Origin: Mytilus trossulus | Taxonomy: Eukaryota | NCBI RefSeq assembly: GCF_036588685.1 | Contig: NC_086380.1 | Location: forward strand, 50,654,001-50,718,000 | Length of the DNA: 64,000 nt | Direction of reading: 5' to 3' | Shown here: piece after piece, positions 6,491-56,454 of the stretch | Layout: each line of letters opens with the position of its first letter | How positions within the stretch are numbered: position 1 is the first letter of the stretch | Program-made: the position numbers and the translations under genes | The notes under the pieces: generated by a model | What the model saw: only the letters and a program-made list of their open reading frames with translations | What the model was told of the DNA's origin: nothing | The model's database searches: none

Positions 6491-6592
6491 CTTATTCTTT
6501 TGATTTGGGTCTATTCCTGAGATTTTTAATAGCAATTGGACAATTTCAAATTGTCCTCTTCTAGCAGCTATGTGTAAAACAGTGTCCCCATC
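6491..6592 (-). CDS. Ankyrin-repeat exon (DGDTVLHIAARRGQFEIVQLLLKISGIDPNQKNK)
   Basis: Ankyrin consensus; CAG/GTATG boundaries; 102 nt, phase 0. Confidence 0.92.
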
Positions 6593-7039
6593 CTGAAACA
6601 TAAAGATTGAATTATATTCAGTAATTACGCATAAGACTGATTGATATTCAGTTTAATACCAATATTTAATTACTGGTTAGTTACAGATACAACTAATGTA
6701 TGCGATCTAAACAAAATATGTCATTAAATAAGTAATGTGTAAAAGTTATGTTGCAAACTCTTTGTGGAAGTTAAATTTGATGTTTGCTGATTAAATATTA
6801 TTCCACCTGACTCGATTTTTCAATTATATCCGTGTTTGTCTCTATAAAACAACCATTCCCAAAAGCAAACGGGTTAGAAAAAATCAGACGATTGGAAAGC
6901 CTCAGCATAACTTTACTTCTTCTTTTTTCTCGGAGTAGTAAGTTTATTGTAGGATGGGTACACACAAATCAATGTGAAAATGAGTTTGATAGTTGTCTAA
7001 GCCGATTGTTCCACGACTGAGAAGTAGTACATTTCATAC

Positions 7040-19691: not shown

Positions 19692-22600
19692 AATAAACGA
19701 TATTGCAAAAGATCAAATACTTTTCTAAAAAAATAAAAACAAAATTTCGAAAAATAACTTTTTGTTTCTTGTTTATGATATTCAAGTACTGTTCATAAGA
19801 GTTCAAAGGAATTTATGTACTAATACATTTTTTTAAGTTACTATTAACGGACTGCAATAAATTTTGATACTCTGCAATATTCGTTCTCAAAATGGATTGT
19901 TTTGAATCATTGCAAATTGGCTAAAATTCTATGTTTTTTGCCTGAAATCTAATGAATTTCTTTCTGTTTAGAGAAATTGCATCAAACTTTTAAATACTAC
20001 AGCTTAATTCAATTTTTCTTAGAAAAAAAAAGACAATTCTCAGCTACCTTCAAATTCTTCCTGCAATAACAAAAGAAAATAAATAATATACATACTAATA
20101 TTTTAGCATTTCCCTGTTCTAAGTCATATTGTACTTTTAAATTTATACAATAAACTAAATTTTTAGCCTTCTGAAATCTTACATTCAAAACTCAAGGCTA
20201 AATTTTTAGCTTTCAAAGATTCTCAATTAAATGTAAATGGCTCGAGTTTTAACTATAAATTTGATCAGTTTGAACAAAAACAGTTGATACATGAAAAAAA
20301 TGCTAAAGTTTTAGTAAAAAAAAATAACATGTTGATCGCAATGCAATATAGTAAATTGTAAATTATAAGCCTGGTACCTTTGATAATCGATTTTGGAGAT
20401 GAAATTTAGCGACTTTAGCAATCATTATTTTGATTTGATCACGAAAATCACGAGTAAGAGTTTACATTTAAGTTTTGAAACAAGCACTAGAATTGAATGT
20501 CCTACAACATTCATAAACTGTCATCAACATGTAGAATAGTTTATCATTATTATACTAATCGACTTTTGGTGGGATTTTATTTCTCAATCTGTAGGTATTA
20601 TGTGGTTTTGGTAGGATTGATATTCTTTTCGACATTTTGAGATTGCCTCAGGCATCAGCAACCTCTTCAATACTATAAAACTATAGTTTGTACCAGGCAG
20701 TATATATATTGTACATATGCCTCATTCAATGTAAAGCGCTAGAAATTAATAGAAATGTACTCTTTTGTAATTTAAGTGATATAGTTCCGTCTTTTGCTAA
20801 TATGTGTGAACAAGATAAGTTTAGTTTCATTCTGAAAAGTAATGATACAGACATTAGTACTGTAAGTGTAGCTGGAATAAGCGATATGTATGATTTGAAC
20901 ATTCATTTAAAGCAAAAATAATGTTGTTAAGAACTTTTATAGTATTAATGCTAATTGTTAATGGCTTGAATTAATAATTTTGTATGAATAACACCTCCAC
21001 GCAATGTAAATATAAAATATGTATCTCTTATCATTGAGAAAATATGTTTGGTTTGTTTTTTTTGTTTTTGTCTGTTTGTTTGTTCATTTTTGTATTTGTA
21101 TTTGTATTTTGTAAATGTCGGCTGGTATCATTTCTGTATAGGAATTTACACCAATAAAATTATTTGATTTGATGTTATGCCTATGGTTTGTCTATAGTAT
21201 GTGTTGACACTTTAAAGTAAATGTCTTCTATTATAAGGACTCTATATGAGGTCAAAAGACATGGAACATGGTATTTGAAAAAAACGAGAGAAAGTTTAAA
21301 TGAAAACCAGACATGAACTCTGGTTACAATTCATATTTTGTTTACATATTTTCATACAAAATAAAACTAGCAAAACTAGTTATATATAGAGATTAAATAA
21401 CGTTCAAGTTACCAAGTTTCTCCTCCTCTTCTGGTATGCTTATTTCCCTTGAATACAATTATCATTTACATTAAGAAAACACGAACAGTTGATGTATTGT
21501 AATATTACAATAGAGTAAAAACAACTTTGCGCCATTTTGTAATCATAAACAGTCTGCGTCCTTCAAATGCTTTAATTATATTTGATGAATTTATGAAATG
21601 TCAAACGTTTACGTGATTTTAACATTTAAAGCGCCTTTATGATTAACATTTTGTCTTTAAAACTCTTGAATAATTGTATCACCTTTAGATTATTTGGTTC
21701 TGTAATTATTAATGTTACAGCTTCAATAAAAAAAATATCATTATACATTTCTAATTTTATTTAACTGTTCCGAACTTAAAAGATTCTATAGACACACATT
21801 TGTGATATATCAGCTAAGCATGTTCAGATTTGAATGACAATATTTGAGTTAAGAACCTTTCACTTGAGCTTCTCATCAGTATTTACATGAAGATCAATAA
21901 TAGGAGATTAATGAAAACCAAAACAAATAGATAGATGTACACTAAAGTCATGTAAGTATACGTTATCAGTTTGTGTAAATGCCTTGTACTTAATTCAAAT
22001 TTCAGAAACGTACAGGGATTTTTGTTGCTAAATCCACGAAATGATATATCAGACTATACATTGTTTCCCTACATACTTCAATTCATACAACAATACACTT
22101 AGGTTTAATTGTAATCTTTATATTATTGGTGATTAAATTAATCAGGTATTAATAACCAAATATTCAGCTGAAACTTCTACTTAAAGAACCTTCAATTGGT
22201 AAGTGACATTCCACATAATAGTTAAATTTGAATATTGTCTATATCGCAAATTCATTTTATTTTGATATTTTAAAACATAACTTAACATGCATTGATATCC
22301 AGGTATTTATTTTTATATATTTTATAAATGAGGTACCAAGGATAAGTCTTCCGAATTGTGATAATTTCATTATGACATAATTAATTGTGATGTAATTGGT
22401 TGCTTTATTGTGATGTCCCCACAGCTGGCCTTCGACTATTTTATCTTTTTTGTGTGTTATTTTGGCACTTCAACTGTTTGTTTTGTTTTTTTACATCCTT
22501 AGCTTTCTAATATAAGGTTCTGAGCGTAAATGATGAAGATAAACCCAGAATAGCTTCATTTTTATCACTTTTGCAGCGATTTTTGTTATAAACGGTTATC

Positions 22601-24323: not shown

Positions 24324-25019
24324 TTAGCCAGGTCTACCACCTGTTAACTGTTGTTGTCCTACTGGTAAATTACAAAAAGGGCTATTTGTAATAGGACCAT
24401 GGTAAGGTGTTGCATAGGTACATTCTAAAAGCTGATTAAGTCTTTCATGTCTATACTCAGTGCATCTCAAACAAATGCAAACTGATAAAATGTGCACTAA
24501 ATAATGAGCATGACAGGTTTTAAGTTCATGCAATAACCTCATAAAATCTTCTGCACTTATATGTCCCTGTAAATTAACTCCATGTAAATTAAGTAAATAA
24601 AACTCATTAATGACAGAACGATACATTGGTTTGATATAAAGCGAATGAATTGCAACAGCATTTTTTGCACTGATTTTTCGTGGCAGAAGCAGTTTAACAA
24701 AGTCTGTTTCCAGTTGGAACTTTTCAATCAGTGGAACAAGAAGAGCTGTTTTGCCCTCTCTGCATCTTTTTACTTCACTATTGTCATTTACTAACCATTT
24801 AAATAAAAAGCCTAATGTAAAATTGCGATTATACTCTGATAAAATAATTTCTATTTCTATTACATCATTTTCATTTTGCATTTGCATATAATTATTAACA
24901 ACATCTAATAAAAACTCACTTCTTTTTAGTGCTAAATGAACTTTGGTCTGGGGCGCAATGGTAACCACACTGGGTTCACCATCATGACCAAAGTTTAAAT
25001 GAAGAACTAGCTTATTCAT
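24324..25019 (-). CDS. Intronless 231-aa divergent BTB/POZ-BACK-like protein
   Basis: Longest intact ORF in the window; pattern HLALKRSEFL...EIEIIL...FLFKWL...LLVPLIEKFQLE...ISAKNAVAI...INEFYLLNL...ISAEDFMRLL...RHERLNQLLEC parallels BTB then BACK; minus-strand AATAAA at 24245-24250. Confidence 0.6.
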   Translation of the reverse strand: MNKLVLHLNFGHDGEPSVVTIAPQTKVHLALKRSEFLLDVVNNYMQMQNENDVIEIEIILSEYNRNFTLGFLFKWLVNDNSEVKRCREGKTALLVPLIEKFQLETDFVKLLLPRKISAKNAVAIHSLYIKPMYRSVINEFYLLNLHGVNLQGHISAEDFMRLLHELKTCHAHYLVHILSVCICLRCTEYRHERLNQLLECTYATPYHGPITNSPFCNLPVGQQQLTGGRPG

Positions 25020-25378
25020 GATAGAATTGCAATATCTCTTTTCCTTTTTTCCCTAACTATTTAATCATAGTTCCCTATTAAGAACAATATTCTTGCCCGC
25101 CCCAAAAAGGAAAAAGGATAGAAGCAGATATGTTTTCAAGATGCTTCTACACCATAGCAAACATTCAGACAATCATGTGGATAGTGTTTTTAAAACACTC
25201 TTTGAATGTCCAAACATTTGGTCTTTAATGTGACCCTTGAAGGTTTTAATATATCCAATTATTTTTAACAATGACAAAATATAAACAGTTTATAACTAAT
25301 TCTTATAATTCATCATTGCAGTGGGTCAAACAGCATAAAACTTCTATAGGCCACGGTGGACTGAATATAATATATATT

Positions 25379-30356: not shown

Positions 30357-30514
30357 TTACAAGTTCTTTACACATATCTTCCTTCTTTTTCTTTTTTTCT
30401 CTGTCTTGTTTACATATGTTTTCAAGTTTTTAATAGTACCAATATCAGTCAGTCTTACTGTACACTTCTTGGATTCTGCTGTATATATTTTCTTATTTCC
30501 TGATCTTTTTCTGC
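30357..30514 (-). pseudogene. Putative late exon of the SET/ARKS gene (GRKRSGNKKIYTAESKKCTVRLTDIG...KKRKRRK)
   Basis: ttttgtAG acceptor; phase-1 frame open for about 52 codons; basic NLS-like run; reading frame and membership of the gene are inferred. Confidence 0.4.
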
Positions 30515-32085: not shown

Positions 32086-32696
32086 TAACACTTTCTTAAT
32101 AACTCACATGAAAAGAAAATACTTCTGACTTTGATTTATATTCAATATAGGGTAAAATAACAATAAGTTTGTAATAAAATATATTATTTTTTTCAAATGA
32201 GGATTTGCATATCTTTTTGTTTCTTTTACTCCTATCTTTCGATCTATTGTGCATAATTTTAATAAATGTCAAAATGCCTCTTATTATATTTCATTCATTT
32301 GGTAAGTTCAAAATGTATATGTTTCAATAATAATAATATTGCAAGTACATTTAACAATAATAAATTTCCAAAAAAGCTCAGAAGTAAAAGTAACATCTCA
32401 AATATAAAGAGAAATGTGTTGGTTTTTTTTTTTATTTTAAAAGCATCTAGGGCTATATCATAACCATCTTTGCCTTCAAGGGGTTAAATATCAGCATGAA
32501 TCAACAATATATCAATAGCTAGTAGTGAATGTATATATATGATATAAGGTCAATGCGGAAAAATAAAAAAAAAATATATGAGGCTGAAAAGTTGGGGAAA
32601 GGTGGAGTTTTAAAGAACTATTAAATGTATACTAAATTATACGAGGGGAATAAGAGGTTTTAACCAACTATTATTTTATACTAAATGATTTCTCAC

Positions 32697-33136
32697 CTAT
32701 TTCGGATTTTTTATCTTTTGTCGATGAATGATTAATAAGTCCTGTAATTGCATCTGAAATGAAAATAAGGATTTAAAAAAAAAATTAATTCATTCTAACC
32801 TTCCCTGAAATATTTGTATGGAATTAATACAATTAAAACTATTTTAAATGTGCATTATAAAGATAAAACTTCTTTTCACAAACTGTTATCATCCTTTTCA
32901 AAATCTGAATAAAATTCTGTTATCAGTCAAATCTTCAAAAGTATACAAGTTGCAGTTCAGACTGTAAATAAGATTTAAAAGACAAACTGTGAACAAACAA
33001 TCTTTGGACTGATATAAAGTTGTAAAAACTTTAGATTATTTACCCTTTTTAGTATTTTTACCAATCCTTTCATATTCTCCAGTAGTTTCACTGGTCCTTT
33101 CTAAATTTGGGCAAACATCTATTGGATTATTTAAAT
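32697..33136 (-). pseudogene. Two open phase-1 exons of the SET/ARKS gene: 33044-33136 (DLNNPIDVCPNLERTSETTGEYERIGKNTKK) and 32697-32753 (DAITGLINHSSTKDKKSEI)
   Basis: AG/GT boundaries; lengths 93 and 57 nt; no stops. Confidence 0.55.
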
Positions 33137-33643
33137 CTGGAAAATTAAAAGGTTAAATACAATAACAATGTAAATGAAAAAGGAGAAAACCAAGGTTATT
33201 CCACCAGGGATGATTCTAGGTGTTTTCAAATGGGTCCCTTAAACATCAAATTGGGAATTTTTTTTGAATAAAATCTAAGAGGAAATAACTTTGTTTTCCT
33301 GTAAAAACGGAAAATGTATATCATTAAGTTTAACCTTTACACTGATGTTCATGTAAGTTGTAACATTTTGAATAATTCTGGATGGGCTACTGTAATTACA
33401 TGAATATTATTGAACATGAGGCACTAAGTCTATCATCTTAGCTATAGTTACCTAGGCCTATTACAAAAATATTTCAGCTAACATAAATAAACCACTGAAA
33501 CAAATCATTCATCAGGTCGCAAATCTCTGTTTTACTGTCTACTTTGTAACAATTGACGGTGGCAACTCTTCAACTACAGTACTGTTATTCCTTATGTAAC
33601 AGAAAGTAAAAAAAAATATTGTTTTCTCTCATTAAAGTTGTAC

Positions 33644-33946
33644 CTTTGTTTCCTGAATGATGTTTATGAATGATATAGTGTTGTGCATCATAGATGGAAT
33701 GTCAGAACTGACAGATAGATTGAAAATGTCTTTATATGTCAAGCTAAGATATGAAGTTAATTCATCTCTCACTTCCTTAGATATGCCTCTAGTGTTGTCA
33801 ACATAGTGGTTAAACAGGCTTTCTCCAACTTTTGGCAATGATTTAAATGGCTTATAATTCTGCAGATACTCTATAATTTCAGCTTTCATTTCTTTTGCCT
33901 TTATAACTAAGGAGATGGGCATACCTGAGGAAATATTTTTCATTTA
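33644..33946 (-). pseudogene. Probable exon of the same gene (NISSGMPISLVIKAKEMKAEIIEYLQNYKPF...)
   Basis: 100-codon protein-like open frame; splice phase does not fit cleanly. Confidence 0.45.
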
Positions 33947-33997
33947 CTTCAATTAAAATAAATAAAAAAAGGATGTAGGAACATGTAAGCTGTCTTA

Positions 33998-34205
33998 CTG
34001 TGAATTCATTTATTTTCGTGGATACCAGTTTTCTTGGATTGTGGAAAAATTGTGCTTTCTAGTATATTTGATTTCATGGTTTTTATTATGTGTTGAAACA
34101 AACCTATATAAAATTCCTACTTCGTTGAGTATTCAAATTTGTGGTTCACCTACACCCACGTAATCCACAAAAATTGGTATCCCACGAAAATCAATAAATC
34201 CACAG
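33998..34205. mobile_element. MITE, same family as 29818-30026
   Basis: ctgtgaattc...aatccacag termini. Confidence 0.65.
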
Positions 34206-35396
34206 AATCTTAAAATATAAGCAAATAAATTGTTCCTCCTATTTTAATTGCATACAGTTTAATATCTCATTTCAAATTCACTCATTTGACTCATGTGTAG
34301 ATCTTACTTTGCTGAACATTTTTTGCTGTAACATTTTATCTCTATATATCTCAAAAAAAAATTGAAGATAATAACCAAAAGCAATGAAATTCCCTAAAAA
34401 AATAACTATTTCGGAACAGTAACCTGACAATGGGTTGTTGGATATGTCTGAAAATTACAAGGCCTATAGATCTTAACCTGATAATTACTTTAACAACAGC
34501 AACTTGAGTTTTACTCTAACAGCTTTTGTCTTTGAGATATTAGTCAAAAACTGCAATTAACCCCTATGTTCTACTTTTACAACATCAGACTTCATTGATG
34601 AAGGATCAAATACCTGGATAATATTTATACAAACAAGATACCCTAAGGAAAATTCAAGTACAGTTCAGTTCATATTGGTCTAGTAGCTTCAGAGAAGATG
34701 ATTTTTGAAAAAAATACTTCCTACAAAAAAATTGTCTTTCCAGGTGAATAACTCCTGAAGAGGTCAATTTACCATTCTAATGCAATTTTTATGTAACATT
34801 TATTTTTTCATTGGATAAAAGCCATCGTATTATTTCTTTTTATAATGCATTAGAATCAGAATAACAGTACTGAAGTTGAAGAGTTGCCACCATAAATTTT
34901 GATTTGACTGTCTCAAATAACCGTTTTACTGGCTCCCTTACGCGTTGCAGTAAAACTGGATTTGCAACTGTCAAATCGACAATTGACTGTGGCAACTCTT
35001 CAACCACAGTACTATTATTCCTTAATTTCACCAACAAACGACAACCATTAAACAACAGCCTCTTGACTAAGGACAGGTGCATATAATAAATGCAACAGGT
35101 TTGAATGTTTTAACAGATGCCAACCTTTACCCTAACCTTATTAACAATAGTATAACATTACAACATGAAAAGACGCACTAAAAAATATTAATTGAAAATG
35201 GCATAATTCTATTAAAAAGACACCAATTTCACAAAAACCACTAAACTATGTTCTTTTTCTTAGCAACAGCATCAAGATTTGTTGATGAATCAAATCATCA
35301 ATTAAAATGTATAAACTATATACCCTAAAGAACATTCACTTTAAGTTATTTTGAAGTATTTGATAGTTATCAAAAGTACCAGGATTATAATTTTAT

Positions 35397-35440
35397 ACGC
35401 CAGACGCGCGTTTCGTCTACATAAGACTCATCAGTGACGC
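35397..35440 (-). ncRNA. Type I hammerhead ribozyme in a retrozyme fragment
   Basis: Reverse complement is gcgtca-CTGATGA-gtct/agac-GAAA-cgcgcg-TC-tggcgt. Confidence 0.85.
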
Positions 35441-35714
35441 TCAGATCAAAATAGTTAAAAAGCCGAATAAATACAAAGTTGAAGAGCATTTAAGGATCCA
35501 AAATTCCAAAATTAATTTCAGAACAGAAGATTCTTGAAATAATTCATGAGGATTATAGCAAGTGATGGCATAAGCTCAAATGACTATCTGGATCAAAAAC
35601 TAAATTTCAGGATTTTGAATGGTTAAAGTAATGGTATTAACTTTCATTGTCCCCTATGTTAGCTTCCTCTTTTTAATGGTAATAGGTATATAACATATTT
35701 ATATTATCACTCAC

Positions 35715-36165
35715 CTTGTATTGCTTTTAATGGAGAACTATCTTCACTTGTAAGGGATTTCCTAGCTTTTAATGGAGAACTATCTTCACTTGTAAGGGAT
35801 TTCCTAGCTTTTAATGGAGAACTATCTTCACTTGTAAGGGATTTCCTAGCTTTTAATGGAAAACTATCTTCATTTGTAAAGGATTTCCTAGCTTTTAATG
35901 AAGAATTATCCACACTTCTTTTTCCTATAAAGAAATTAATTGTAAAGTGTTAGAAGTAAGTGTTACGAAGAAACTTGTGTGTTCTTTTTTAAGTCAGCTT
36001 ACTACACAGTTATGTCTAGAACAGAAAAAATATATCAACATACAAAATATAGAAAATACCTACCATTTCTTGCTTTATATGGAGAACTGTCTTTGCTATT
36101 TAAGGATTTCCTAGCTTTTAATGGAGATCTGTCATCACTATCAAAGGATTTCTTATCTCTACTAC
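35715..36165 (-). CDS. ARKS-repeat exon pair, copy 2: 36064-36165 and 35715-35924
   Basis: Phase 1-1 exons of 102 and 210 nt with no stops; 42-bp repeat encoding SPLKARKS(L/F)TSEDS. Confidence 0.7.
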
Positions 36166-36589
36166 CTACAATTATGTCATAGTTTATTGTTAAACCTTGA
36201 TTGTATCAATAAGTGTGTCTGCATCAACTGTTTCTTAAATTACTTAAAATGTTAATATTTATATGTTGTATCCTGTAAGAACAATGAAATTAGGCCTATT
36301 GTGTTTTATTTTTGTACTATCAATTCCAAGTTTACTTTCCACAGCAGTCACTAAGACTCAGAGTGAGAGAAAGTATATTCCACTTCGTATCTTATCACCT
36401 ATTTTCCTACATTAGTTCTAGGAGGAACCCCATTCCTAACTCTTTAAATATTTAATTTTCTGTGAGTCAGTGATCATGACTCCTTTCCGTACACATTTAT
36501 TGGTTCAAATTGCGATCTTTTTAAATAAAATACAACATTTATTGACAGAACGAGCTAATACTGGACATGTCGTTTGATTCAACATTTAA

Positions 36590-37228
36590 ATTGACAATGA
36601 GGGTCGGTTGAAGACAAAACTTTACGACAAAAGAGATGATTTCAGCTTTCCAATTGTGAACTTTCCATTTCTAAGTAGCAACATTCCAGCAGCACCTGCA
36701 TACGGGGTATATATCTCCCAATTGATACGATATTCCCGTGCTTGCATTTCCTATCATGATTTTCTTGATAGAGGGTTACTGCTCACAAGGAAGCTATTAA
36801 ACCAAGAGTTCCAAACGGTGAAGTTGAAATCATCCCTTCGTAAATTTTACGGACGCCATCACGAGTTGGTTGACCGTTATGGAATAACCGTTTCACAAAT
36901 GATATCGGATATGTTCCTTACGTCGTAACTACAATCCCCTTCCCTTTCATGAATTTGACCTACCGAATTAGACTATTTACCGGATTTGTAATCACATAAG
37001 CAACACGACGGGTGCCGCATGTGGAGCAGGATCTGCTTACCCTTCCGGAGCACCTGAGATCACCCCTAGTTTTTGGTGGGGTTCGTGTTGTTTATTCTTT
37101 AGTTTTCTATGTTGTGTCATGTGTACTATTGTTTTTCTGTTTGTCTTTTTCATTTTTAGCCATGGCGTTGTCAGTTTGTTTTAGATTTACGAGTTTGACT
37201 GTCCCTTTGGTGTCTTTCGTCCCTCTTT
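36590..37228 (+). mobile_element. 5'-truncated Penelope-like retroelement: RT C-terminus plus 3' UTR
   Basis: KLYDKRDDFSFPIVNFPFLSSNIPAAPAYGVYISQLIRYSRAC...; open to the stop at 36928; intronic and antisense to the host gene. Confidence 0.8.
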
Positions 37229-38054
37229 TAAGGAAGTGAGACAACTCGAAACGATAATATGGAAGACTCCATTTTGCCTGATGTTCTATGATGATGACTA
37301 CATTCATTTTTTTTAAATGATGCATATGATTTAAAGAAATGCAACAACAATAACCCTCAAAAGCAGACATTCATAGAAAAGATCCCATGAGTTGTAAATT
37401 AATTGAGTGGGGAATCCAGAGCTAAAACCCCTTGAAGTCAAGAAATCTATACGCATGCGCATAATTACCAAAACAAACCTTTGAGCAAGGTCGTATATTA
37501 AATGTTAACTAAACGATGGTTCTCTATTTCTTTATGGAATTACAATGATCTTGAATATCAGTTTCATAACAGTAACATATAAGAAAAACTCCACTTCATT
37601 TCTTATATGACAAAAATAGATTTATCGGAATTCAGAGAACTCTCGTATTTTATCAAAACTGGGATTCCCTCTGACGTGTTTCTAAATTTATAAAAACATT
37701 CAATATAAATACTGCTTAATTCTGATTTTTCGTGTTGTTAAAAACACACATATAAGTCAATGGAATTATCAAACATGAAGATTATGAAAAGAATATTATA
37801 GGAAAGTTGTTTTAGTTCAATCCCTTTGTTTGTTTTTTATATAAGTATAAGTCTACAGATTGCTTGAAAGCAATTGTATCCAAAAAAAAACTCACCTTTA
37901 CAAAGCTCCACATCAAAAATGAAATTATTTCTTTTCATAAAAGCCATTAAAACTTTGACAAAAATTAAACAACAAAGTCTTTTGGACTGACAGACTGACA
38001 GTTACCAGTTCAGCAACTATGTCGACAGGTAAAATATAACATATTATCACTCAC

Positions 38055-38602
38055 CTTTTATTGCTTTTAATGGAGAACTGTCCTTGCTTGTAAAGGATGT
38101 CCTAGCAATTAATGGAGAACTGTCCTCAGTTGTAAAGGATTTCCTAGCTTTTAATGGAGAACTATCTTCACTTGTAAGGGATTTCCTAGCTTTTAATGGA
38201 GAACTATCCTCACTTGTAAAGGATTTCCTAGCTTTTAATGGAGAATTGTCCTCACTTGTAAAGGATTTCCTAGCTTTCAATGGAGAACTGTCCTCACTTG
38301 TAAAGGATTTCCTAGCTTTCCTAGCTTTTAATGGAGAACATTCCTCACTTGTAAAGGAATATACACTTCTTTTTTCTATAAAGTAATTAATTATAAGATG
38401 TTAGAAGTGACTTGTTAAGATGAAATGCTTCTGGCATGCAACATAATAAGCCTGATACATGCATAATTGAGTAGGAAATTTGTAGATGTGTAGAACAACA
38501 GCAATAAGTATTTTTAAATACAAAAAATATCAAAATACCTACCTTTTCTTGCTTTAAATGGAGATCTGTCATCACTATCAAAGGATTTCTTATCTTTTTT
38601 AC
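38055..38602 (-). CDS. ARKS-repeat exon pair, copy 1: 38543-38602 and 38055-38375
   Basis: Phase 1-1 exons of 60 and 321 nt with no stops; about 7 units of the 42-bp repeat. Confidence 0.7.
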
Positions 38603-39699
38603 CTAGAATTATGTCATAGAACTTTTTTTTATACCTTGGTTATCTATAAAAGAACTTAAGTTAAGTGAGCAGGATCACATACTCCACATCCCTATATTGT
38701 CACTAGGCAAACAAAATATAAATCTATGATTTTCATCCAAGTCCCCCCCCCCTCCCTGACAAAGTGGTCCACCTTAACCGATATCCAGCACTTCATTGAA
38801 ATTTATAGGAAATCCAACCAACAAAAAATAAATGTGCTTTCTACATGTTCTAGGCATAAAGCAGAAAGTCCCCCTCCTGAACAAAAAATACCCCTCTACA
38901 GATTTATCTAAAAATCAATCCTATCGAAGCTTTTATGGTAACCAACACTTTATTTATGTAAAGAAGAAAATCACACCAGAAATGAAGGCAGCATCCAGAC
39001 GATGATTTTTATCCAGTCCCCTCGTGACAAAAGCTTCCTTCCTCTTATTTCTGTCAATAACAATCCCATCAAAGCTTTTTTGTTTACAGATGGCGACAGA
39101 CAAAAAGAGAGATGGACCAGTCAAAAACATTTTACCTTTCGTAACTTAAGTTGCATAGGGTATAAAAAATGTGTATAAATAAACTGCTTAAATTTTTAGT
39201 ATTCTTTGTTATATCATATCTCCCCAGGTTGGCATAAACATTTTTCACAAATATTGAAACAAGATATCTACAGAAACAAGAGGATCATGAAAGCCTGAAA
39301 TCATATATAATTCATGATGCCTTAAGTACAATTAAATACATTTTCAAAAATGCTATTTCATTTTTCTGCCAAAAAGCTAAAAAAATATATTAAAATCATC
39401 TTTTAAGAGAAAAAAATGGAATAAGAGGTGAATTTTCAAATTTCAACTTACACAAATGAACAACCTATCTGGTTTTATACTAAATCGATACAAATATAAA
39501 AAGTAAATAATATACTATGCAGAGTTAACATCTCGCACTATCAATGTTACTGGAGCATATTGATAAATATTTAAGATGGTTCAGACTTATCTGTAGAACC
39601 CAAACTGTATTATGTCCAAAGAAATACTTGTGCAGTAGAAAACAGCACTAATCAGACCATTATGAATTAAAATACTAACACAAGTCAAGAATTACTTAC

Positions 39700-40317
39700 T
39701 TGATTTAATCTGGTCTGATGTCCTTTTTGAAAACTTTTTAAATATTCTTCCTACAAATTTTTTTTTCAAAGTGCTTGAATAAGCTTTATCCTTAAAACAA
39801 TGGTGAAGTTATTACAAAGTCTTAACATAATGTCACAAAGTCTTCATAACTTCCTACATTTTAAAGATGTTGCTTATTGTTGAAGGCCAAACAGTAACCA
39901 ATAGTAGTTTACATCTATGCAAATTGGTCTCTAGCTCATTGTTGTCTTCTTGAAAATCTTTTACACATTTTATATTTTCATTAATTAACTTATTGGAAAT
40001 AAAATCAATTTGCTCTTAGGTCCATGGCCAGTTAAACACGTTTCTACTATAAACCAGCAGAAACCAGTCAAAAGTCAACTTTATAATGATGTCAAACTTG
40101 AACTCGTAGAGAGCTTATTTAATACTTGTTCAATGTCGTAACTGGGTTTGGTACCAATGACAATTATTCCACATATAAGTACTTACGTTCAGATGTTTTT
40201 TTCAATATTCATTAATATGAAACTCACCTTCAACTGGACCTATTAAAGCTTTGCCTTTTCTTGTTTGGCATGGAGAAATCTTATCATAATACTTCTGAGT
40301 GTTACTAATATACATAT
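39700..40317 (-). CDS. Two open phase-1 exons: 40228-40317 (DMYISNTQKYYDKISPCQTRKGKALIGPVE) and 39700-39750 (GRIFKKFSKRTSDQIKS)
   Basis: Strong GTGAGT and GTAAGT donors, pyrimidine-rich AG acceptors, lengths 90 and 51 nt. Confidence 0.6.
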
Positions 40318-40327
40318 CTAAAACATA

Positions 40328-41082
40328 AATTAGAGGCTCTAAAGACCCTGTGTCGCTCACCTTAGTCTATGAAGGACACAGATGGATTCATGACAAAATT
40401 GTGTTTGAAGATCTTACTTGACTGAACATTCTTGTTACTTACAATTTTTCTATCTATAATAAACTTGGCCCTTTAGATAGAAAGGAAAGTATTTTGTAAA
40501 CCAATTTACCAAATTAATGAAAATTGTTAAAAATTTACTATAAAGGGCAATAACTCTTTCAGAGGTCAACTGACCATTTTGGTCATGTTGACTTATTTGT
40601 AGATCTTACTTTGCTGAACATTTATGCTGTTTACAATTTATCTCTATTTATAACAATATTCAAGATAATAACCAAAAAAGGCATTTTTTTCAAATTACCA
40701 ATTGAGGGGGAGGCAACCCAACAATCATTTCTCCAAATCATCTGAAAATTTCAGGGAAAATAGATATTGACTAGATACCAATTCAATCCTTTGTCAGATT
40801 TGTTCTAAATGCTTTATTTTCAGAGTTATAATCTTCATTTTACCCCATGTGTTCTATTTTTAGCCATGGCGGCCATCTTGATTGGTTGGCTGGGTCACTG
40901 CACACATTTTTTTTTCAAAAAGATACCCCAATAATGATTGTGGCTAAGTTTGGTTAAATTTGACTCAGAGGAGAAGATTTTTGTAAAAGTTAACAACGAT
41001 GTCGACGGAGACGAACAAAGGACGAGGAACGCCAAGTGATGCGAAAAGCTCACTTGGCCTTGTGGGCCAGGTGAGCTAAAAA
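40328..41082 (-). mobile_element. HINE, third and shorter copy
   Basis: Same termini as 25379-27397. Confidence 0.8.
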
Positions 41083-41119
41083 AGCAATGAAAATTCTTTG
41101 ATTGCAGCAGTTAAGTTAA

Positions 41120-42030
41120 AATTTAACCTTAAATAGTAACAAACGTTAATGACTGATGAATAAAACTGAAAGTGCAATGCAATGTGATATATGTGGAAAT
41201 GCCAATGTAAAAAAAAACCTGCATGTTTAACCCAGCCACATTATCTATGCATGTGCCTATCCCAAGTCAGGAGCCTGTAATCAGTGGTTTGTTTATGTGT
41301 TACATATTTGTTTTTTGTTCATTTTTATATTTAAATAAGGTCGTTAGTTTTCTATTTTTAATATTCAGACTTGTTACATTTGTGTACCTTCTAATACTTT
41401 GAGAGTATTTAAAACAAGCTGCCATGCATCTTTACTAAAGTAGGTCTTCGCTGAAGTTTGTGTTTCAGGACATATTAAACAGAATATCTGTATGACTCAA
41501 CATATTTTCTGGCTTTGTTTCCACTTCTTCTTCAATCACAAACAGTACAGACTGTGCTCTTAAAACAGCATCTAGATCAGCCATATGATATAAAAAGCCT
41601 GAAAAATTAAGATCTAACTATGTAGTTGAAACTTTTAATAAAATTTAGAAAAAGAGGCCATCAATAGGATGTGCTATTTCAAACCAACACTGAATTCAAA
41701 AGTCCTCAAGGGGCAGGTAGGAAAAAGTGGATATGACATTTGAAATCATGCAAATGGTTTAATCATTCAAAACAAATAAAACTTAACCTTAAATTGTGAA
41801 AAAACGTTAATGACTGATGAATGAAACTGAAAGTGCAATGCAATGTGATATATGTGGAAATGCCAATGTAAAAAAAACTTTGCATGTTTAACCCAGCCAC
41901 ATTATCTATGCATGTGCCTATCCTAAGTCAGGAGCCTGTAATCAGTGGGTGTCGTTTCGTTTGTTTATGTGTTACATATTTGTTTTTTGTTCATTATTAT
42001 AATTATTTAAATAAGGTCATTAGTTTTCTT
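41120..42030. repeat. ~240-bp direct duplication (about 41120-41355 and 41782-42030) flanking the zinc-finger exon
   Basis: ttaaccttaaat...aaactgaaagtgcaatgcaatgtgatatatgtggaaatgccaatg...aagtcaggagcctgtaatcagtgg occurs twice. Confidence 0.85.
41388..41598 (-). pseudogene. Decayed zinc-finger-like exon (VCTVCD*RRSGNKARKYVES / CLICPETQTSAKTYFSKDAW)
   Basis: Two CxxC motifs; stops and one frameshift; AG/GT boundaries. Confidence 0.45.
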
Positions 42031-43406
42031 GTTTGAATTGTTTTACATTAATATTGTCATATCGGGGCCTTTTATAGCTGACTATGCAGTATTGGCTTTG
42101 CTCATTGTTGAAGCCCATATTTTTGTCTCTTGTGGACAGTTGTCTGATTGGCAATCATACCACATCTTCTTTTTTTTTTTTTATATATAACAATATCATT
42201 AGTGGTTCCCCTTTAGCAGCTTATATCTACAGTTTTAACATTTGAAATAAGTTTTTTTGAAGAATATTATATTTTTTTCACATAAAAATAGACTGTCCAT
42301 TTCAAACATACTTTTTAAGACAACTAATTTCTTTCAATGGCCACTTTTGTCCTAGCTTACAAAATTGGAATCAACCATATTTCCTATTTTCAATCATTTG
42401 GTTTGACCTTATGGTTGTACAGTCACAAACAAACTAAAATTGGAAGAACAAGGATGTGTCCAAAGTACACGGATGCCCCACTCGCACTATAATTTTCCAT
42501 GTTCAATGGACCATGAAATTGGGTAAAAAATCTAATGTGGCATAAAAATTAGGAATATCATACCATAGGAAACATGTGTACTAAGTTTCAAGTTGATTGG
42601 ACTTCAACATCCTCAAAAACTACCTTGACCGAAAAATCTAACCTGAAACTCACACTTTCATTTTCAATATCTCAACACCATAACTTCTGAACTGTTAAGG
42701 TAAAATTGCCTCTATTGAACTAGACATCCATTTTGTCATCAGTAGCAACATTTTTGAAAAAAACTTTTTTTTTTGTCAAATGTATTACATTTAAGAGACA
42801 TTTATAAACTTAAACAATCTATTCTTTTTAAACTAACAAAAGTAATGGGAATTGTATCATATAAAATCTGCTTCAATGGTTTCAAGTTCAATGTTCAGTT
42901 GAATAACATTACCTTTGTCTATCAAGGTGATCTTTCTACTTTTTGTTCAGCAGATCTTTTTAACAGCATCTTTTATTTTATACATTTCTATTTTAAGTTT
43001 CATGCATATGTTACAAGGATTTATATTCTTTGTCTAAAAGATCAAAAGTATTATAAGGTAAATGAGATTTTTCAATCAGATATGACAAGGTTTTGGATTT
43101 GAATAGCCTGCATCACTCATCTGTAATATTTTGAGTATCAATGATAATATTTTTGCTATTTAATGATTACAAATATGCACACGCTGTTTTCATTTTCTTG
43201 AAATTATAGTTTTAACAAATGAATAGGAACATTTGTCGAACGGCAAATCATTAGAATTGTTTTTGACAAATGTTGGAATTAAAATAGCTACACTTTAACA
43301 TGTCAGTGTTGCAAATATTGAAAGACAGTTATCCACGCATGACTGAAGGAACATGGGCTAAACAATCTCTATAGAAAAGAGATGTGCCAATGCTAATACA
43401 ACTACT

Positions 43407-43843
43407 GGTCTGAGAACACAATTAAGTCGTAGTGCATTTCTTTTAGAACATAGATGAAAATTGAAAAAATCCCACCTGCGCTTTCTCAATGAAATTTTTA
43501 CAGTGTGTTGTACTACTTTTGGGACAAATTATATCAAAATTATAGAAAACTTCATCGCCTCTAACTCAAAATATGGACAATTTTGTGTTTAGGGTGTCTT
43601 AAAATCTTTTAACAGCTTCCAAATTGCTAATTTTTAACCTTTTTTCAGCTGGACCAAATCACTACTTTCTTGTAAAATTCTGGACCCAAATTTTTTACAG
43701 TGTAATTTCACCCCCTACTTACAATTTGAGTCATTAAACATGGAGAAATAAACTTGGAAGGGGTATAAAAATTATTTGCAAGTAACCCACTGTTAACACT
43801 AGGGACTATATTAATCAAGGGACGACAATTGTGGTCTCGGACC
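43407..43843. mobile_element. MITE with 17-bp imperfect TIR and 4-bp TSD (TACT)
   Basis: ggtctgagaacacaatt...aattgtggtctcggacc; tact at 43403-43406 and 43844-43847. Confidence 0.8.
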
Positions 43844-43983
43844 TACTTACCAAATCCCATTGACTTATCACAAGTAGTTGCCTTTAAACAAATCTAAACA
43901 CAAACTAATACATGTAAACTAAGCAAAATTTCAAAGTCAATATTCTTCTGACAGAAATAAAAGAGAAGCAAAAACAGACAAAC

Positions 43984-44459
43984 CTGAATCAAAGTTGGAT
44001 GGTCTGTGTATCAAAGTGCATGTAATAGTGACATGAATTAGACTTGGTACATGTACATCAAGGTGTTGCAAGGTGATTGGATGAACATTGTCACATAAAT
44101 ATTTTAGGATTGATGATCTTTGCTCCTAAGTAAAATTCCTAGTTTTATCAGCATAGTCTTCACAACTATTCGCGGGGTCTCCTACTTTTGGCATTAATTT
44201 AATGTAGTTGAACAATTTTGAATATATTTCAAAATATCGAGATGCATATTGCCTCTATCCAGCATTAATTTTGAAAATTCGCCGTTAGTAAATTTCTGTG
44301 CTTGATCTGACGTTTTTTCGGGACAACATAAGAGGTGTTTGTGTTGTTTGTCCTTTGTTGATGAGTTTCATCAATCTTTTGTACATTAGTTGATTTTGTT
44401 TCAGAATTGTCTTTTCTTTTAGGAGGTTCCTCTTTACATAAATTTCTGATGATTTCCAC
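43984..44459 (-). pseudogene. Decayed exon with a USP-type Cys-box-like motif (NFQN*CWIEAICISIF)
   Basis: tttgtAG acceptor and GT donor; N-x2-N-x-C-W at 44259-44279; several stops and frameshifts. Confidence 0.4.
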
Positions 44460-47289
44460 CTACAAATAAATTTAGATCTTTACATACATTAAAATTGTAG
44501 AAAAAAATTTAGAAACGTTAAATGGAACAAACATTATAATGATAGTTTATGACTGAATATAGATCTTTACAAATCTTTAGGTTGTAATAGTGATGTTGGG
44601 TTTCCTCTCTTCTTCATTCAAACCCACATACAAGTTTACAAGTTACATCTTCATACTCTGAACATAATGCAAATCATCTGAGAAATAAATATTGTTGAAG
44701 CGCAGCAAAATGTGAAGTATACATTGTATCAACAGAATTTATGAGAAAGTTTTAAGTTTTAAGAATTTTCAATTATGAAAATAATGCAAAGTTCATTTCT
44801 GTAATCTGAATGTTATTCTTCTCTTGTGTGATTTTTTCATAATGTTGAGCTTCAATATACATAATATATAGATTTGAAAACAATATCTACATTTATTTCA
44901 GTGTTTTTTTTTTTTACTCTGTAAATGTTATATAATAACAATTTCTTACATATTTAAAGAGGTTAACATCGTAAGCTGTAGGACTGTTTTTTCCTGAGGC
45001 CCATAAGAATATACATGTATTACTTAGGTGTACACACATTTTTATATCAATTTGTAGTCCTTATTCAGCTCTTTCATTTCAAAGATTAGTGCAAGAAAAC
45101 TTTAAAGTTCATACCAAACTACATGTACATTATCATATCATTCACACTACCTTGGTAGCTATTTTAATTACTTTATTCTGCCATTAGCACGAAAATTGCT
45201 TGAGGTAGATGTGCAGAGCTCACAATTTTTCACATTCACACTGTTATCATTTGTCACTGTACATGTACAATTTATAGCCTCTGAAAAAAAAATCTATAGT
45301 ATTATCATTTACATCTACTTTACATACCTAGTACGCACATACAAATATTTTGAACATAGGCTAGCTGAATATATAAAATATACACATAACCGTCACACTA
45401 TAAAAGATAAACATGATAAAGACATTGACGGACATCCATCTCTTAGTTAGGGTTTATTTTATCGGCTTCGATAAAAAAGCGATTTGTATAGAGTTTTGCT
45501 ATTTTGCCGGTCTTATTAAGACAAACAATTTTACGAACAAGTAAGAACATCCTGACCTCAAATGTTGATGTGCTTGAAGAAAACCTCACATATAAAATGA
45601 CAATACAAGTATTAATGGACAAAACAAGCATATAAACTGTTTACTGAGTCACATCTGACCTGATATCTCAAAATAAAATTCCAATCAAGAAGGTCAGTGT
45701 TCCTTATACAGAATGCACGATATCAACTGGTGATGAAAGACCAAGCAAACAAAAAAGATGCACGAAGAGTGGGTCCAAGGATGGGTGTTGCAGCAATGAA
45801 TAATTAAACAAACATATGAAAATCTGGTCTACTTAATACAATTTTCAAAAGTATAATCCTTTTTATTAAATCTTAAAGTCTCAGTTAATGAATATGTGAA
45901 TTAACATTAAATAAGTCGTTTTTTTCTAAACTCTCATAATACACAGTAAATAAATTAGTGCCATATTACTTTAAAGATATAAAGGTCAATTCTTAAAGGT
46001 CAAAGACTATGAATTTAGTTTTTTTCTGAATTACGAATTATCTAAAAAGAATTTATGTAATTTATTCTGTAAGTGTTATTACATTAAATAGTACTATACC
46101 AAAATAAAACAAACTGCTTAAAGTAAAAAATCAGAAATATTCTTAACTTTGTATGTAAAAAGTCTTAAAACTCTGTAAACTTCCCATGTCAAAGTAAAAA
46201 AACTGTAAACTTCCCATGTATAAAGTCATTAAAACTTAAAGATCCTAATGTAAATAGTGAACATAAGGTTGTTGTGTTAGGATTGTTAATTAAGTTTTCC
46301 GTTTATTATTTGGTGGTGGAACTGTTCGACATACGAAAGTATGGTTATCCTTTATCTAGTCGAAGAAATCTCACCTAGTAGCCACATATATCATGTGTGT
46401 TCATGATAATTTTTTTCAATAAAATGTATTTCATATAGTCCGGAGCCGGCAACATAGCCACTGCCTTTTACCTACCTTGCTTTCGATCGGTAGTTATATC
46501 CTGCATTCCTTGTTTACCTTTATATGTATTAGTCCATATGGACTGGTGTGAAGCCTCATATAAAATCAAACTAGTTGTTATATTGTATAAAACAGAATCC
46601 CGGTCCATTAGCCCTTATTCATGTTCTATCTAGTACATGTTTGCCCTGATTATTATGTTTTGTTGTTGTCTAGTTGCATAATGTTTATTATTAGAACAAA
46701 GTATATTTAAGTTTGTTGACAAACAATCGGTGAATATTTGTATTGACGCAACCAATTAATTATTTTCCTGTGATTTGCATAGACGAATTCTGGAATACAA
46801 TGTATATCTTTATTGATATTTATTACCAATTTGATCTATTCAATCAATTTATGCATGCAGTAAAATAATAAATGACCTTTCGATAAAATATCCAAATTTC
46901 CTGATCTTTTGTAAACATATATGAAATTGTTTCACATTCAATCCAGTCACTCACTAATCCCCACTGTTACGTATATTTTAGACACGAAAAAATTTAATGA
47001 AATTAAAAATGTTTTTTCTTTCTTAATAAGTTAAGGTAGGCTGTAGTATCTATTCGAAATAACATCAAACATGTGATCCAAACTTTAATTAGAAAGAAAC
47101 AGATATTACAGTCATTCTTTAAACATTGTTCAAGTATAGATTTCAATTCTTGAAACTTGTACGCACAACTTACAAATTGTGCCCGAAGCGCTAGCCTGAC
47201 CACTACTACCTAGTCTCTAGACAAATTTTACCAAATATTGAATTTGAATATATAAAAATAAATCGATGAATTATTGTCTTCCTACTTAC

Positions 47290-47862
47290 CAATTGATAAT
47301 TGACATTTTACATTTAATTTAGAAGCGACAGAGTTATCCGGTCATTCAAGGGTTTCCTAGAATCCTATCTCTCTTGGTCTATCCATAGTCCAAAACCAAT
47401 TCTATATCTTTCGGTATATTAACTTTAGACACCAAGAAAAGTTTCTCACAACTTTTTCCTTTTAAATTATCATGCACCACAGAAATAAGTTTAAAACTCG
47501 AAAACTGTTACGAATGATTGAAATATCGTGCTTAATTTTCCTCTTAATTAAACAAAACTCCACGCTTATCCTTTTAGAATCTAACACTAAATTCGTTACA
47601 GGATCAAATACTGCTACTGGGGGCAAATTTTTTTCTGTATATTCCTTCTCGCGATCTTCATTTTCGGAACTTGTTCGGCGATGAAGGTCAACCGCCTCAG
47701 TTCAAACATTTACGTATCCAAGGTATATATCTTCAAATCAGTTCTTTTAACTGCAATGACAGACGACTTCAATGATTTGACAAAATCCTCAATATATAGA
47801 ATAACTACCAACACGTCCCTTTGATGGCGATTTATTACTTTTTATTCGGGATTCTTAGGCAT
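47290..47862 (-). pseudogene. First exon: decayed SET-domain lysine methyltransferase (PR-Set7/SETD8-like)
   Basis: One frame reads ARYFNHS*QFSSFKLISVVHDNLKGKSCEKLFLVSKVNIPKDIELVLDYG (47382-47531), giving the NHS and ELxxDYG SET motifs with correct spacing; upstream EDREKEY; ATG at 47862; GTAAGT donor at 47289. Confidence 0.75.
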
Positions 47863-47976
47863 TTAGCGTGACGGTTTTCAACACTTATGTACTTGATTAA
47901 CTCGACGTTCATAGTAAACTAATACACAGTTTAATTGAAATGTCAAATTTAATTTAGTCATTGTATGTCGAAAAGT

Positions 47977-47982
47977 TTATAC
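47977..47982 (-). promoter_or_regulatory. Candidate TATA box upstream of the SET exon
   Basis: TATAAA on the minus strand about 115 nt upstream of the ATG; weak evidence in AT-rich DNA. Confidence 0.25.
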
Positions 47983-48967
47983 AGTGCTGGTATCGATTGT
48001 TAAGTCGACGCAAATATATATGAACCATTATGAATAACAAACAGAGGATGGGTTTATGAAGTCATCCCGTTAGTTTTGCCGTAATACAATTTGTGACCAC
48101 AAAAGATCTATACAGCTCCATTAAAATCTTTCAGACATTAATGAAACTCTTAACTTGAGGCACGAACACATACATTTTGTATAAAAGGTGACATTGTGAC
48201 AATTGCCAAACCTTTTAGAATACGTATTAACATTTGTACCTCCCTTTTAACGCTTTGTCAACACTTTGAGTCCGTTCGTTCGTCCATCCGTCTGTCGTCC
48301 ATAGATCTCTCAACTTTAAACATTTTGTCTTCTCCACTAAAACAACTACATGTAGAGAAAAATGGAAATAAACTAAGCAGTAAGTCTTTCATATAATTTG
48401 CCCATTCTGACCAGATGGCCAATCGTTGTTACTAATTAACTGACCAAATTGCAATGGCTTCCGTTAAATTTACGAAGGGATGATTTCAACTTCACCATTT
48501 GGAACTCTTGTTTTAATAGCTTCCTTTATTAACAATTGGTTGAGGCAAACTCAATGTTGACAAGGGAAACGACAGAATTATCACTTTTCCATTAATAAAG
48601 GACTTAACCTATGAACTTATGAACTGTAAAAGTGACGCTCTTCAATTACAAGTTTGATTGTGTTTTGTGGTAAAAAGTATAACGTATAAATATTGTAACA
48701 TTTGGTCAAATTGTTTCAGCGAATAAGACTTTTTATTTAAAACAGCAACAGGTGCAACCTAAGGGGAAAATCTCACATTCTAGTGTGGGTCAGGTGTGCT
48801 AAACATCTGTGAAAATGATTTTTAATCAGAAATCATAAATTACTAAAAAATGATAATTACTAATTCAACGAATTTAAACCGTTCTAACCAATTAAATAAT
48901 TCGTTATCACAAATTACAAAAAATGTTTTGCACTTTTTTTACACAAAAAAAACCCTATTTTTCCGGG

Positions 48968-54856: not shown

Positions 54857-55212
54857 ATATATATATTTCTCTAATTCTTCGTCAATTTATCCCTTTCTGC
54901 ACCCATTGTATACCAAAAATTTAATCAACGTGTGGTTCGTTTGATCTCAGTACTTCATTGGTTAAAATCAGATTGTGACGTCGAATTTTCTTGCTTTCCT
55001 CTGAATTTCCTATTGTGACGGCATGAAAAAGGCGACCATGTCTGACGACGTCACATAGAAAGAACACATCTTTTTGCAGATCATTCGAAAAGAAAGAATA
55101 TGTTTGCCTGCATAATGTTAGAAAATCATTAGAGAAACAGATTCCACCACCAAATATCGTGTAATACGATATTTATCCACTCTCAACAGTTAAATTATCA
55201 ATTTTAAAGTCC

Positions 55213-56454
55213 TTGCTGAGGCGGCTCAAACATGAGCGTGATAGAGCTGTGGGAATGGTACAAGCAGATATGCGTCATATTGACGTCGCAAACAACTTTG
55301 GTGTTTCTAAATTGACAATAACAGGATCAATGAGTCGTCTAAGACAGACTGGGTTCTCAAATGACAGACGACGTAGTGGACGTCCAAGAGAAACGACGTT
55401 ACGCCAAGATCGTCGAATAAAATTCACACATCTCAGGAATCGGTTTTTACCAGCTACAATTACCGCTAGACAATCACCTGGAAGCCATAATCCAAGGATA
55501 TCAGCCCAAACAGTACGTAATAGGCTAAGAGAGGCTGGTTTACGTTCACGACGTCTAGTAGTAGGAGCCATTCTAAAACAGTGTCATCGAACTGCACGCC
55601 TACACATGTACATTGGGCAAATGCACATTTGTATTGGAATCGTGTAAGGTGGCAAAACGTCATTTTTAGCGATGAGTCAAGATTTCTCTTACGTAGAAGT
55701 GATTGCAGAATGAGAGTGAACCGACGTCAAAATGAACGTTATGCAGACGCGTGTGTACATGAATGTGATCGCTTTGGTGGTGGTGGTGTGATGGTTTGGG
55801 CAGGAATCACGCATTGTGGACGAACTGACTTGACGTTCATTAACGAAAGCCTTACTGGAGTTCGTTATCGTGATATATTTCTCTCTCCCATTGTACAACC
55901 ATTCATTGCAAGGCATAGAAATCGGCATAGTTTCCAACAGGACAATGCTAGGTGCCACGTGGCACGTGTATCAACACAATATCTTGGACAAAATAACATT
56001 GATAAAAATAAAATTGACATTCTTCCATGGCCAGCTTTATCACCAGATCTATCACCCATTGAACATTTATGGGATGAACTTGTTAAACGTTTTCGCAGAC
56101 GTCATCAACCACCAGAGTCAGTCAACCAGCTACGAGCCGCCTTAGTGGAAGAGTGGAATAACATTCAACAAGCATTTATTCAACGATTACTTGGATCAAT
56201 GCGTCGGCGATTGACTGCTTTTATCGACGCAAGAGGTGGCCATACGCGATATTAACTCTTCAACTTTTGGTTTTGACAACAACAACTTCAACAGCCCTTG
56301 AAATAAGGAAAATTATTTGTGATTTGTTATCTTTGTTAAGTTTGTGTGCTTTGATGTCATTGTTTCATAAAATACAAAACAAAAACAATATTGTTGAAAA
56401 ATAAAGTAGATATTTTTGATAAAAATCAGGTATCGTTTCTTTTTGTGGCTAGTA
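55213..56454 (+). mobile_element. Tc1-family transposon, 5'-truncated, with frameshifted transposase (55213-56255)
   Basis: HTH plus GRPR, FSDESRF, FQQDNA and SPDLSPIEHLW motifs; right-end-like atcgtttctttttgtggctag followed by TA; no left TIR found. Confidence 0.93.

Follow-up and report, generated by a model that had tools for sequence, protein, structure and literature searches.

A tandem KARKS repeat in the ParB-family accessory gene of a giant DNA transposon from Mytilus

A 64,000-nucleotide stretch of Mytilus trossulus contig NC_086380.1 (positions 50,654,001 to 50,718,000; hereafter the window) contains four short minus-strand exons, A to D, three of which hold arrays of a 42-bp tandem repeat (Table 1). 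All four are bounded by AG/GT and are multiples of 3 in length, and when joined they encode 230 residues without a stop, including 10 KARKS motifs, 12 SPxK sites and seven full SPLKARKS sequences. The sequence-only reading of this DNA had counted 5, 1 and 4 KARKS motifs in what are here exons B, C and D, and these counts are exact. Each repeat unit contains three Lys/Arg, two Asp/Glu and five Ser/Thr residues. Pfam searches of the repeat exon and the full proteins returned nothing but a sub-threshold match to DUF6446.

Splice joints were collected from contigs of four public runs aligned to window positions 32600-48200; runs X1 and X2 were taken as RNA by guess. Contigs of X2, one of the four runs, contain joint 35923/36063 between exons C and D and joint 33136/35715 between exon D and the exon that follows, in each case with minus-strand GT..AG ends, and the downstream joint listed in Table 1 is present in contigs of X2, X21 and X24. 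Contig depth was 141-218 at the X2 joints C-D, D-33136 and 37355-C. No joint involving exon A or exon B was among the 15 joints listed of 283. Because of the C-D and D-33136 joints, the repeat can be considered exonic on the minus strand, as had been presumed earlier, at least for exons C and D. The repeat exons were nearly devoid of reads in the two raw RNA runs and RefSeq models leave out exon A, B or D; the repeat is expressed in some samples only. An in-frame ATG lies upstream of exon C at 37370 (minus strand), and a GCGCATGCG motif, which we take to be NRF1-like, is found near 37460 on the same strand and in 22 of the 25 stretches compared. It is possible that 37355-37470 (minus strand) acts as an internal promoter and start for a 211-aa KARKS-rich protein; the X2 joints permit a 211-aa product that is devoid of the ParB domain and carries five ARKS motifs, with its last exon taken from RefSeq models.

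Table 1. Features of the element in the window and coordinates of two sister elements
Feature	Position	Strand	Remarks
Left 4-bp target-site copy TATT	19842-19845	+	right copy AATT beyond window, one mismatch
Giant DNA transposon	19846 to beyond window (past 64000)		70.8 kb total; non-autonomous
Left TIR	19846-19955	+	97% identical to right TIR over 110 bp
242-aa ORF	24327-25052	-	intronless; in long subterminal inverted region
Last exon of ParB-family accessory gene	30360-30514	-	basic, NLS-like C-terminus
Accessory-gene exon	32697-32753	-	RNA joint 32753/33044
Accessory-gene exon	33044-33136	-	sister-family counterpart holds another 10-aa repeat (GEKISETTGQ)
Cassette exon of accessory gene	33665-33925	-	36% identical to transposase N-terminal region
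Repeat exon D	35715-35924	-	210 nt; 4 KARKS
42-bp array	35723-35917		4.6 copies (TRF)
Repeat exon C	36064-36165	-	102 nt; 1 KARKS
42-bp array	36065-36152		2.1 copies (TRF)
Window-copy-specific insertion	36590-37226	+	gap in all aligned copies; no Pfam match
Internal upstream exon piece	37355-37370	-	ATG to GT donor (37354); spliced to exon C in X2
Repeat exon B	38055-38375	-	321 nt; 5 KARKS; expanded from sister family's single-unit exon
42-bp array	38063-38319		6.1 copies (TRF)
Exon A	38543-38602	-	60 nt; SPFKARK, no ARKS
Accessory-gene upstream exons	39695-39750, 40226-40315, 41389-41602	-	ParB-domain exons absent
Broken transposase 5' exon remnants	42923-43033, 43982-44455, 45180-45260	-	no DUF7869 core
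SETD8-like SET pseudogene	47337-47862	-	~80-codon deletion plus frameshifts/stops, common to 5/5 aligned copies
Sister element	G000:C72:307965-408988		101 kb; same termini
Sister element	C18:254341-377100		123 kb; same termini

The KARKS gene is the cargo of a DNA transposon and not a host gene, a feature that the sequence-only reading overlooked. The element ends at G000:C8:50744624 (position 90624 in extended window numbering), 26.6 kb past the window, and its TIRs begin AACGGACTGC. Alignment of four other copies placed a sharp start of similarity at 19846 in three of them and an end at extended position 90624 in three; the window element is ~98% identical to three of the four, and 93-98% identical to the copy on C10. 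At all 30 ends read, the termini were identical and the flanks unrelated, and target-site duplications (TSDs) of exactly 4 bp bordered seven of eight paired copies of the window family. More than 20 dispersed copies, 92-98% identical, are present in a Mytilus genome, 13 TIR pairs span 54.8-80.9 kb, and sequences matching exon B at 88-97% identity occur at 20 further loci spread over eight contigs (21 loci including the window). Segmental duplication of a host gene family, with no transposon involved, would account for the introns, the RefSeq gene models and the large size, but not for identical termini within unrelated flanks or for the exact 4-bp duplications. The TSD and TIR data refute this alternative, to which we give next to no weight. 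The protein relatives of the accessory gene are all labelled Mytilus.

Several other features were recorded in and around the element. The window-specific insertion at 36590-37226 is presumably a reverse-transcriptase-like fragment. A Tc1/mariner remnant (55165-56255, plus strand; DDE_3, 3e-11) is nested in the element and present in its copies. Near the right end, at extended positions 76410-89000 (L042-L043), a 4.3-kb unit is triplicated in the window copy only, and an incomplete copy of the 242-aa ORF lies within it in inverted orientation. Outside the element, an ankyrin-repeat exon of a host gene lies at 6269-6652 (minus strand; Pfam Ank, 3e-9).

Gene models from M. galloprovincialis and M. 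coruscus (P0001/P0011 and P0002) contain an extra N-terminal domain that is absent from the window element and the four aligned copies, and a search with this domain located the two sister elements. Their 6,726-bp TIRs are 99.7% identical and their flanks differ; the TSDs are ATTG/ATTA in one element and TAAG in the other, exact in one of the two. The sister elements are 99.6% identical to each other and recently inserted, and they encode a DUF7869 transposase, an intact SET ORF and a whole accessory gene, which contains no ARKS and in which a different 10-aa repeat has expanded in a later exon. The 242-aa ORF has no Pfam family, is intact in both families (omega 0.29) and occurs at either end of each sister element; it represents a fourth element gene.

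The transposase is a 1006-residue protein with a DUF7869 match (E 8e-71), the only Pfam hit. Its aspartate pattern, GMDQ / CDNC / HEDID with motifs judged by eye, is one that we take to be the three-Asp pattern of Sola. It has acidic exon repeats of its own, and the accessory-gene exon at 33665-33925 (minus strand) is a small module common to the ParB-gene protein and the transposase. A sequence search of the PDB with the transposase gave no match, the AlphaFold model built from a 5-row alignment reached a pLDDT of 36, and 11% of its Atlas neighbour cluster is DDE_Tnp_ISAZ013. Genome-wide, 139 DUF7869 matches were found, some within single 667-aa ORFs.

The N-terminal domain of the accessory protein is predicted to adopt a ParB fold (pLDDT 91, 35-row alignment), and the top Foldseek matches of the model were ParB, Noc, PadC, KorB and Srx (best E 7e-4). 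GxxR is the nucleotide-binding arginine motif of ParB; the Mytilus domain has GNHS, with Ser at the usual Arg position, and Arg occurs in 10 of the 35 aligned rows. The sister SET ORF is intact (259 aa; Pfam SET 7e-13), and its best PDB matches are a SET-domain protein (4ldg) and SETD8. Judged by E-values that differ by a modest margin (~1e-7 for SETD8 versus 1e-5 for SETD2 and 1e-4 for Clr4), the element SET appears closest to SETD8, the H4K20 enzyme, and not to the K9/K27 enzymes. This does not favor the notion of a cognate SET domain serving as K9/K27 writer, and the gene is broken in the window. Methylase and 2OG domains gave no Pfam match on the SET or ParB proteins. A third intact SET ORF (G000:C69:30528-31349), 46% identical to the sister SET and ~14 kb from telomere-like repeats, possibly represents a third giant family.

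Relative to the sister elements, the window family has its SET gene and 5' transposase exons inverted with respect to the ParB gene, broken, and fused to the 3' half of that gene; in the window copy neither SET nor the transposase is intact, and the ParB domain is deleted. Stops interrupt all 26 of the listed C-terminal SET matches that are neither from the sister elements nor from C69, and no DUF7869 match fell within a paired KARKS-family copy among the best 150 of 202 candidates. A genome search for an intact element with both ParB and KARKS recovered none at 90% identity or above, the best ParB matches among 23 candidates being the sister elements at 83%. The window family arose by rearrangement and deletion, and with its SET and transposase genes broken and rearranged it is thus non-autonomous. 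Because the termini are common to both families, we infer that it was mobilized in trans. Degraded ParB-exon and DUF7869 matches that cluster at G000:C5:47.2-53.2 Mb and C14:72.9 Mb mark older related elements.

In M. galloprovincialis, gene models fuse 10 ARKS motifs to ParB, and the locus number of a ParB+KARKS model is next to that of a DUF7869 model, which suggests that a complete KARKS-bearing element may exist in that species. Through most of its 3' half, the M. galloprovincialis model P0011 shows 91-100% identity with the window exons, and a model from M. edulis is similar to the second subfamily. Mussel species may thus have exchanged the element recently, by hybridization or transfer.

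The origin of the motif can be traced by comparing families. At the position of exon B the sister family has a single short exon, KRNVYSFTSEDSSPLKAMEG, and the corresponding exon of a third, more distant family is KRDVYSFSSNDSPVKA; the array grew from one ancestral unit, VYSFTSEDSSPLKAMEG. Exon B corresponds to the ancestral short exon with SFTSEDSSPLKA(xx) duplicated, and ARKS arises at the duplication seam, where the KA-RK end of one unit meets the Ser of the next. The seam precursor was KA-ME ancestrally, and terminal units have KA-IK. VYSF-x-S-x-D and SP[LV]K are kept across the three families, but ARKS is not. The first of these, located at 38350-38375 (minus strand) in the window and also in P0016 and P0019, is common to the three families and, we presume, resembles YxF cohesin-binding motifs. 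ARK took the place of AME/AIK and of ATD in two different exon types, which could mean that basic residues were selected for or that gene conversion occurred. When the circular 14-aa unit was shuffled, ARKS appeared in 0.47% of cases, KARKS in 0.047%, and one or another of several histone-like motifs in 2.2%. The ten motifs constitute one event, multiplied by tandem duplication.

Variation at orthologous columns was scored in 22 of the 25 stretches, with L187, L184 and L190 left out. The 22 copies contain 41 non-synonymous and nine synonymous variants (omega 1.19), and the non-synonymous rate is 0.004-0.005 versus 0.004 in introns. The sequence-only reading had asked whether ARKS is more conserved than the other positions of the unit, and had named equally free variation as the outcome that would contradict it. 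That outcome was observed: of the 41 non-synonymous changes, 10 fall in ARKS codons, where 20% would be expected (p=0.44), so that ARKS varies as freely as the rest. This test is weak by itself because inserted copies drift, and as the drift is neutral the result is compatible with selection in an active master lineage. Comparisons between units gave an omega-like value of 0.57 from a small sample (11 non-synonymous, five synonymous), and pairs of lineages, likewise a small test, gave mixed values of 0.45-1.49. Against the sister family, omega was near 0.3 in three of the five non-repeat exons of the accessory gene.

More telling than the variant counts are the spread of a damaged subfamily and the array of M. 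coruscus. Exon B was found in 21 of the 25 stretches, with a frameshift or stop in six of the 21; exon C was found in 22, in 15 of which the acceptor is not AG; and exon D was found in 21, 14 of them sharing a 2-bp frameshift. All three exons are usable in only six of the 25 stretches. (Exon A was found in seven and exon E3 in one of the 25, counts that depend on matching of flanks and may include misses.) A 15-copy subfamily has spread with exon D frameshifted, in 14 of 14 copies where this exon was found, and with AKKS and ARKY changes. The M. coruscus array contains five TRKS versus six ARKS motifs, and the Ala at position -2 of ARKS is described as buried in the chromodomain pocket (available text of 10.1101/820647). 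These TRKS units, together with the ARKS-free gene of the sister family, do not support the idea that a mimic is maintained in homologues. ARK[ST] was present in none of 60 ParB-family proteins (P0019 and 59 new representatives) and in none of five Mytilus proteins from other families. The long homologues P0042, P0047, P0057 and P0053 have unrelated tandem repeats of their own, two of them with basic SP/TP units.

These data bear on the possibility that the array is a selected histone mimic, in which amplification was favored and the methylated, ParB-tethered tail soaks up or docks K9/K27 writers and chromodomain readers, with phosphorylation as the off state. KARKS is the motif of H3K9, H3K27 and H1.4K26 that chromodomains read (10.1101/820647, available text). 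The array lies in a ParB-fold protein with a SET gene adjoining, both the M. galloprovincialis models and the window's subfamily retain ten copies, X2 contains spliced exons C and D with the possible product of five ARKS described above, and the per-unit chance of ARKS is only 0.5%. However, ARKS codons show no excess conservation, the pocket-buried Ala has become Thr in five M. coruscus units, the larger subfamily spread with a damaged array, the recently inserted sister elements do without ARKS, and the SET enzyme is SETD8-like. We consider a selected mimic unlikely. The more elaborate proposal that the element runs its own chromatin program, with ParB loading, a ten-fold ARKS tail decoying HP1/Polycomb, SET marking, and a small ParB-less KARKS protein made by non-autonomous copies from an internal start as a diffusible sponge, is in our estimation quite doubtful.

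At the other extreme, the array might be a slippage minisatellite in a dispensable tail, functionless and tolerated because its in-frame cassettes are often skipped. Neutral rates across copies, four exons that are each a 3n cassette, RefSeq models that skip A, B or D, and the scarcity of repeat-exon reads in both raw RNA runs all accord with this view. It does not readily explain the recurrence of unrelated basic SP/TP repeats in homologues, the VYSF..SP[LV]K core kept in three families, or the omega near 0.3 in three of five flanking exons, and it seems to us quite improbable.

Taken together, we favor, with a probability of roughly 0.7, the reading that tandem expansion of a 42-bp unit produced the KARKS array, which forms part of the tail of an accessory protein with a ParB fold encoded by a giant cut-and-paste transposon, and that ARKS itself is likely incidental. 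The complete element would encode a transposase together with a chromatin cassette consisting of the ParB-fold protein and the SETD8-like SET enzyme, and the window family would be moved in trans by a transposase recognizing the common termini. The ParB protein may bind the DNA of the element that encodes it and, acting together with the SET enzyme, may set the element's chromatin state or help to join ends that lie 55-120 kb apart. The long Ser/Thr-rich tail would grow freely as minisatellite units and exons are duplicated, and is likely a basic, phosphorylation-switched disordered region that works through charge. SPxK is the CDK consensus and RKS-F/L an Aurora/PKA-type consensus; phosphorylation at these sites may tune the charge of the tail. 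Of the chromatin platform envisaged by the sequence-only reading, a chromatin role is thus retained as very likely, given the ParB fold and the SET gene on the element, but selection of ARKS as a K9/K27 mimic is not.

Among known systems, the closest functional parallel appears to be Plavaka of the red alga Bostrychia, whose accessory genes are described as PAG2 (N6A-methylase plus SET) and PAG3 (ParB-like) (10.1101/2025.02.11.637652, available text). Plavaka is a giant DDE transposon that, like the giant mussel element, carries SET and ParB genes, and binding and modification of its own chromatin has been proposed for it. As described there, Plavaka elements are 17.4-19.1 kb EnSpm/CACTA transposons of algae with methylase and 2OG-oxygenase fusions, whereas the mussel element has an animal host, a DUF7869 transposase, a 4-bp TSD, a length of 55-123 kb, intron-rich genes and a stand-alone SET. 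By analogy, the mussel element may work like Plavaka but is not one, since transposase, TSD and size differ. Published descriptions give Sola a TSD of 4 bp and TIRs whose termini vary, features that the mussel element shares, and the mussel transposase has a putative three-Asp pattern of the Sola kind. Sola elements are given as 2-9 kb long, with some >15 kb, and their TIRs as 11-1124 bp (PMC10741241, PMC3845634, in part); the mussel elements differ in their 55-123 kb length, 6.7-kb TIRs, accessory genes and lack of a strict AWWT preference. The mussel element thus looks Sola-like in a comparison made with descriptions of Sola rather than with named Sola sequences.

Other comparisons are more distant. 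HarbingerS and SET-carrying Helitrons are likewise reported as transposon-borne SET methyltransferase carriers, but they belong to other superfamilies, and the descriptions available to us mention neither a ParB gene nor giant size. DUF3723 is described as conserved cargo of giant Starship elements, which are fungal and mobilized by a tyrosine recombinase (10.1101/2021.12.13.472469, in part); in Atlas the ParB-like region was nearest to DUF3723 clusters (0.96), and Pfam DUF3723 gave no match here. Teratorn (180 kb) is also a giant animal TIR transposon, but is described as a piggyBac-herpesvirus fusion (PMC10175614, in part); no viral genes were found among the selected mussel-element ORFs scanned with Pfam. 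The single motifs of G9a (ARKT) and influenza NS1 (ARSK) are reported to be methylated or bound experimentally (PMC6028506, in part), whereas the mussel ARKS is a tandem, unconserved seam motif known from sequence alone. According to the same source, NS1 mimics H3K4 and so was miscast by the earlier reading as an ARKS/ARKT mimic.

The giant transposon, rather than the mimic idea, is the notable part of this locus: what is new is a putative giant Sola-like transposon with a SET and ParB cassette, paralleling red-algal Plavaka. No description of the family was found in the literature searched; it may be catalogued in Repbase Reports or in subscription journals, which, like bioRxiv supplements, lay outside that search. 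Cut-and-paste transposons have been thought to be size-restricted in nature (PMC6431247, in part), and curated bivalve DDE elements are reported to average <6 kb (PMC10294476, in part). DUF7869 gains a transposon context, and the element serves as a warning that many mussel genes annotated in RefSeq as 'neurofilament-like' or uncharacterized are carried by transposons. The two sister families, one bearing ARKS and the other lacking it, form a natural control pair for histone mimicry. A recently active family of 55-123 kb TIR elements in mussels that carries SET and ParB genes suggests a recurring toolkit by which very large elements manage their own chromatin.
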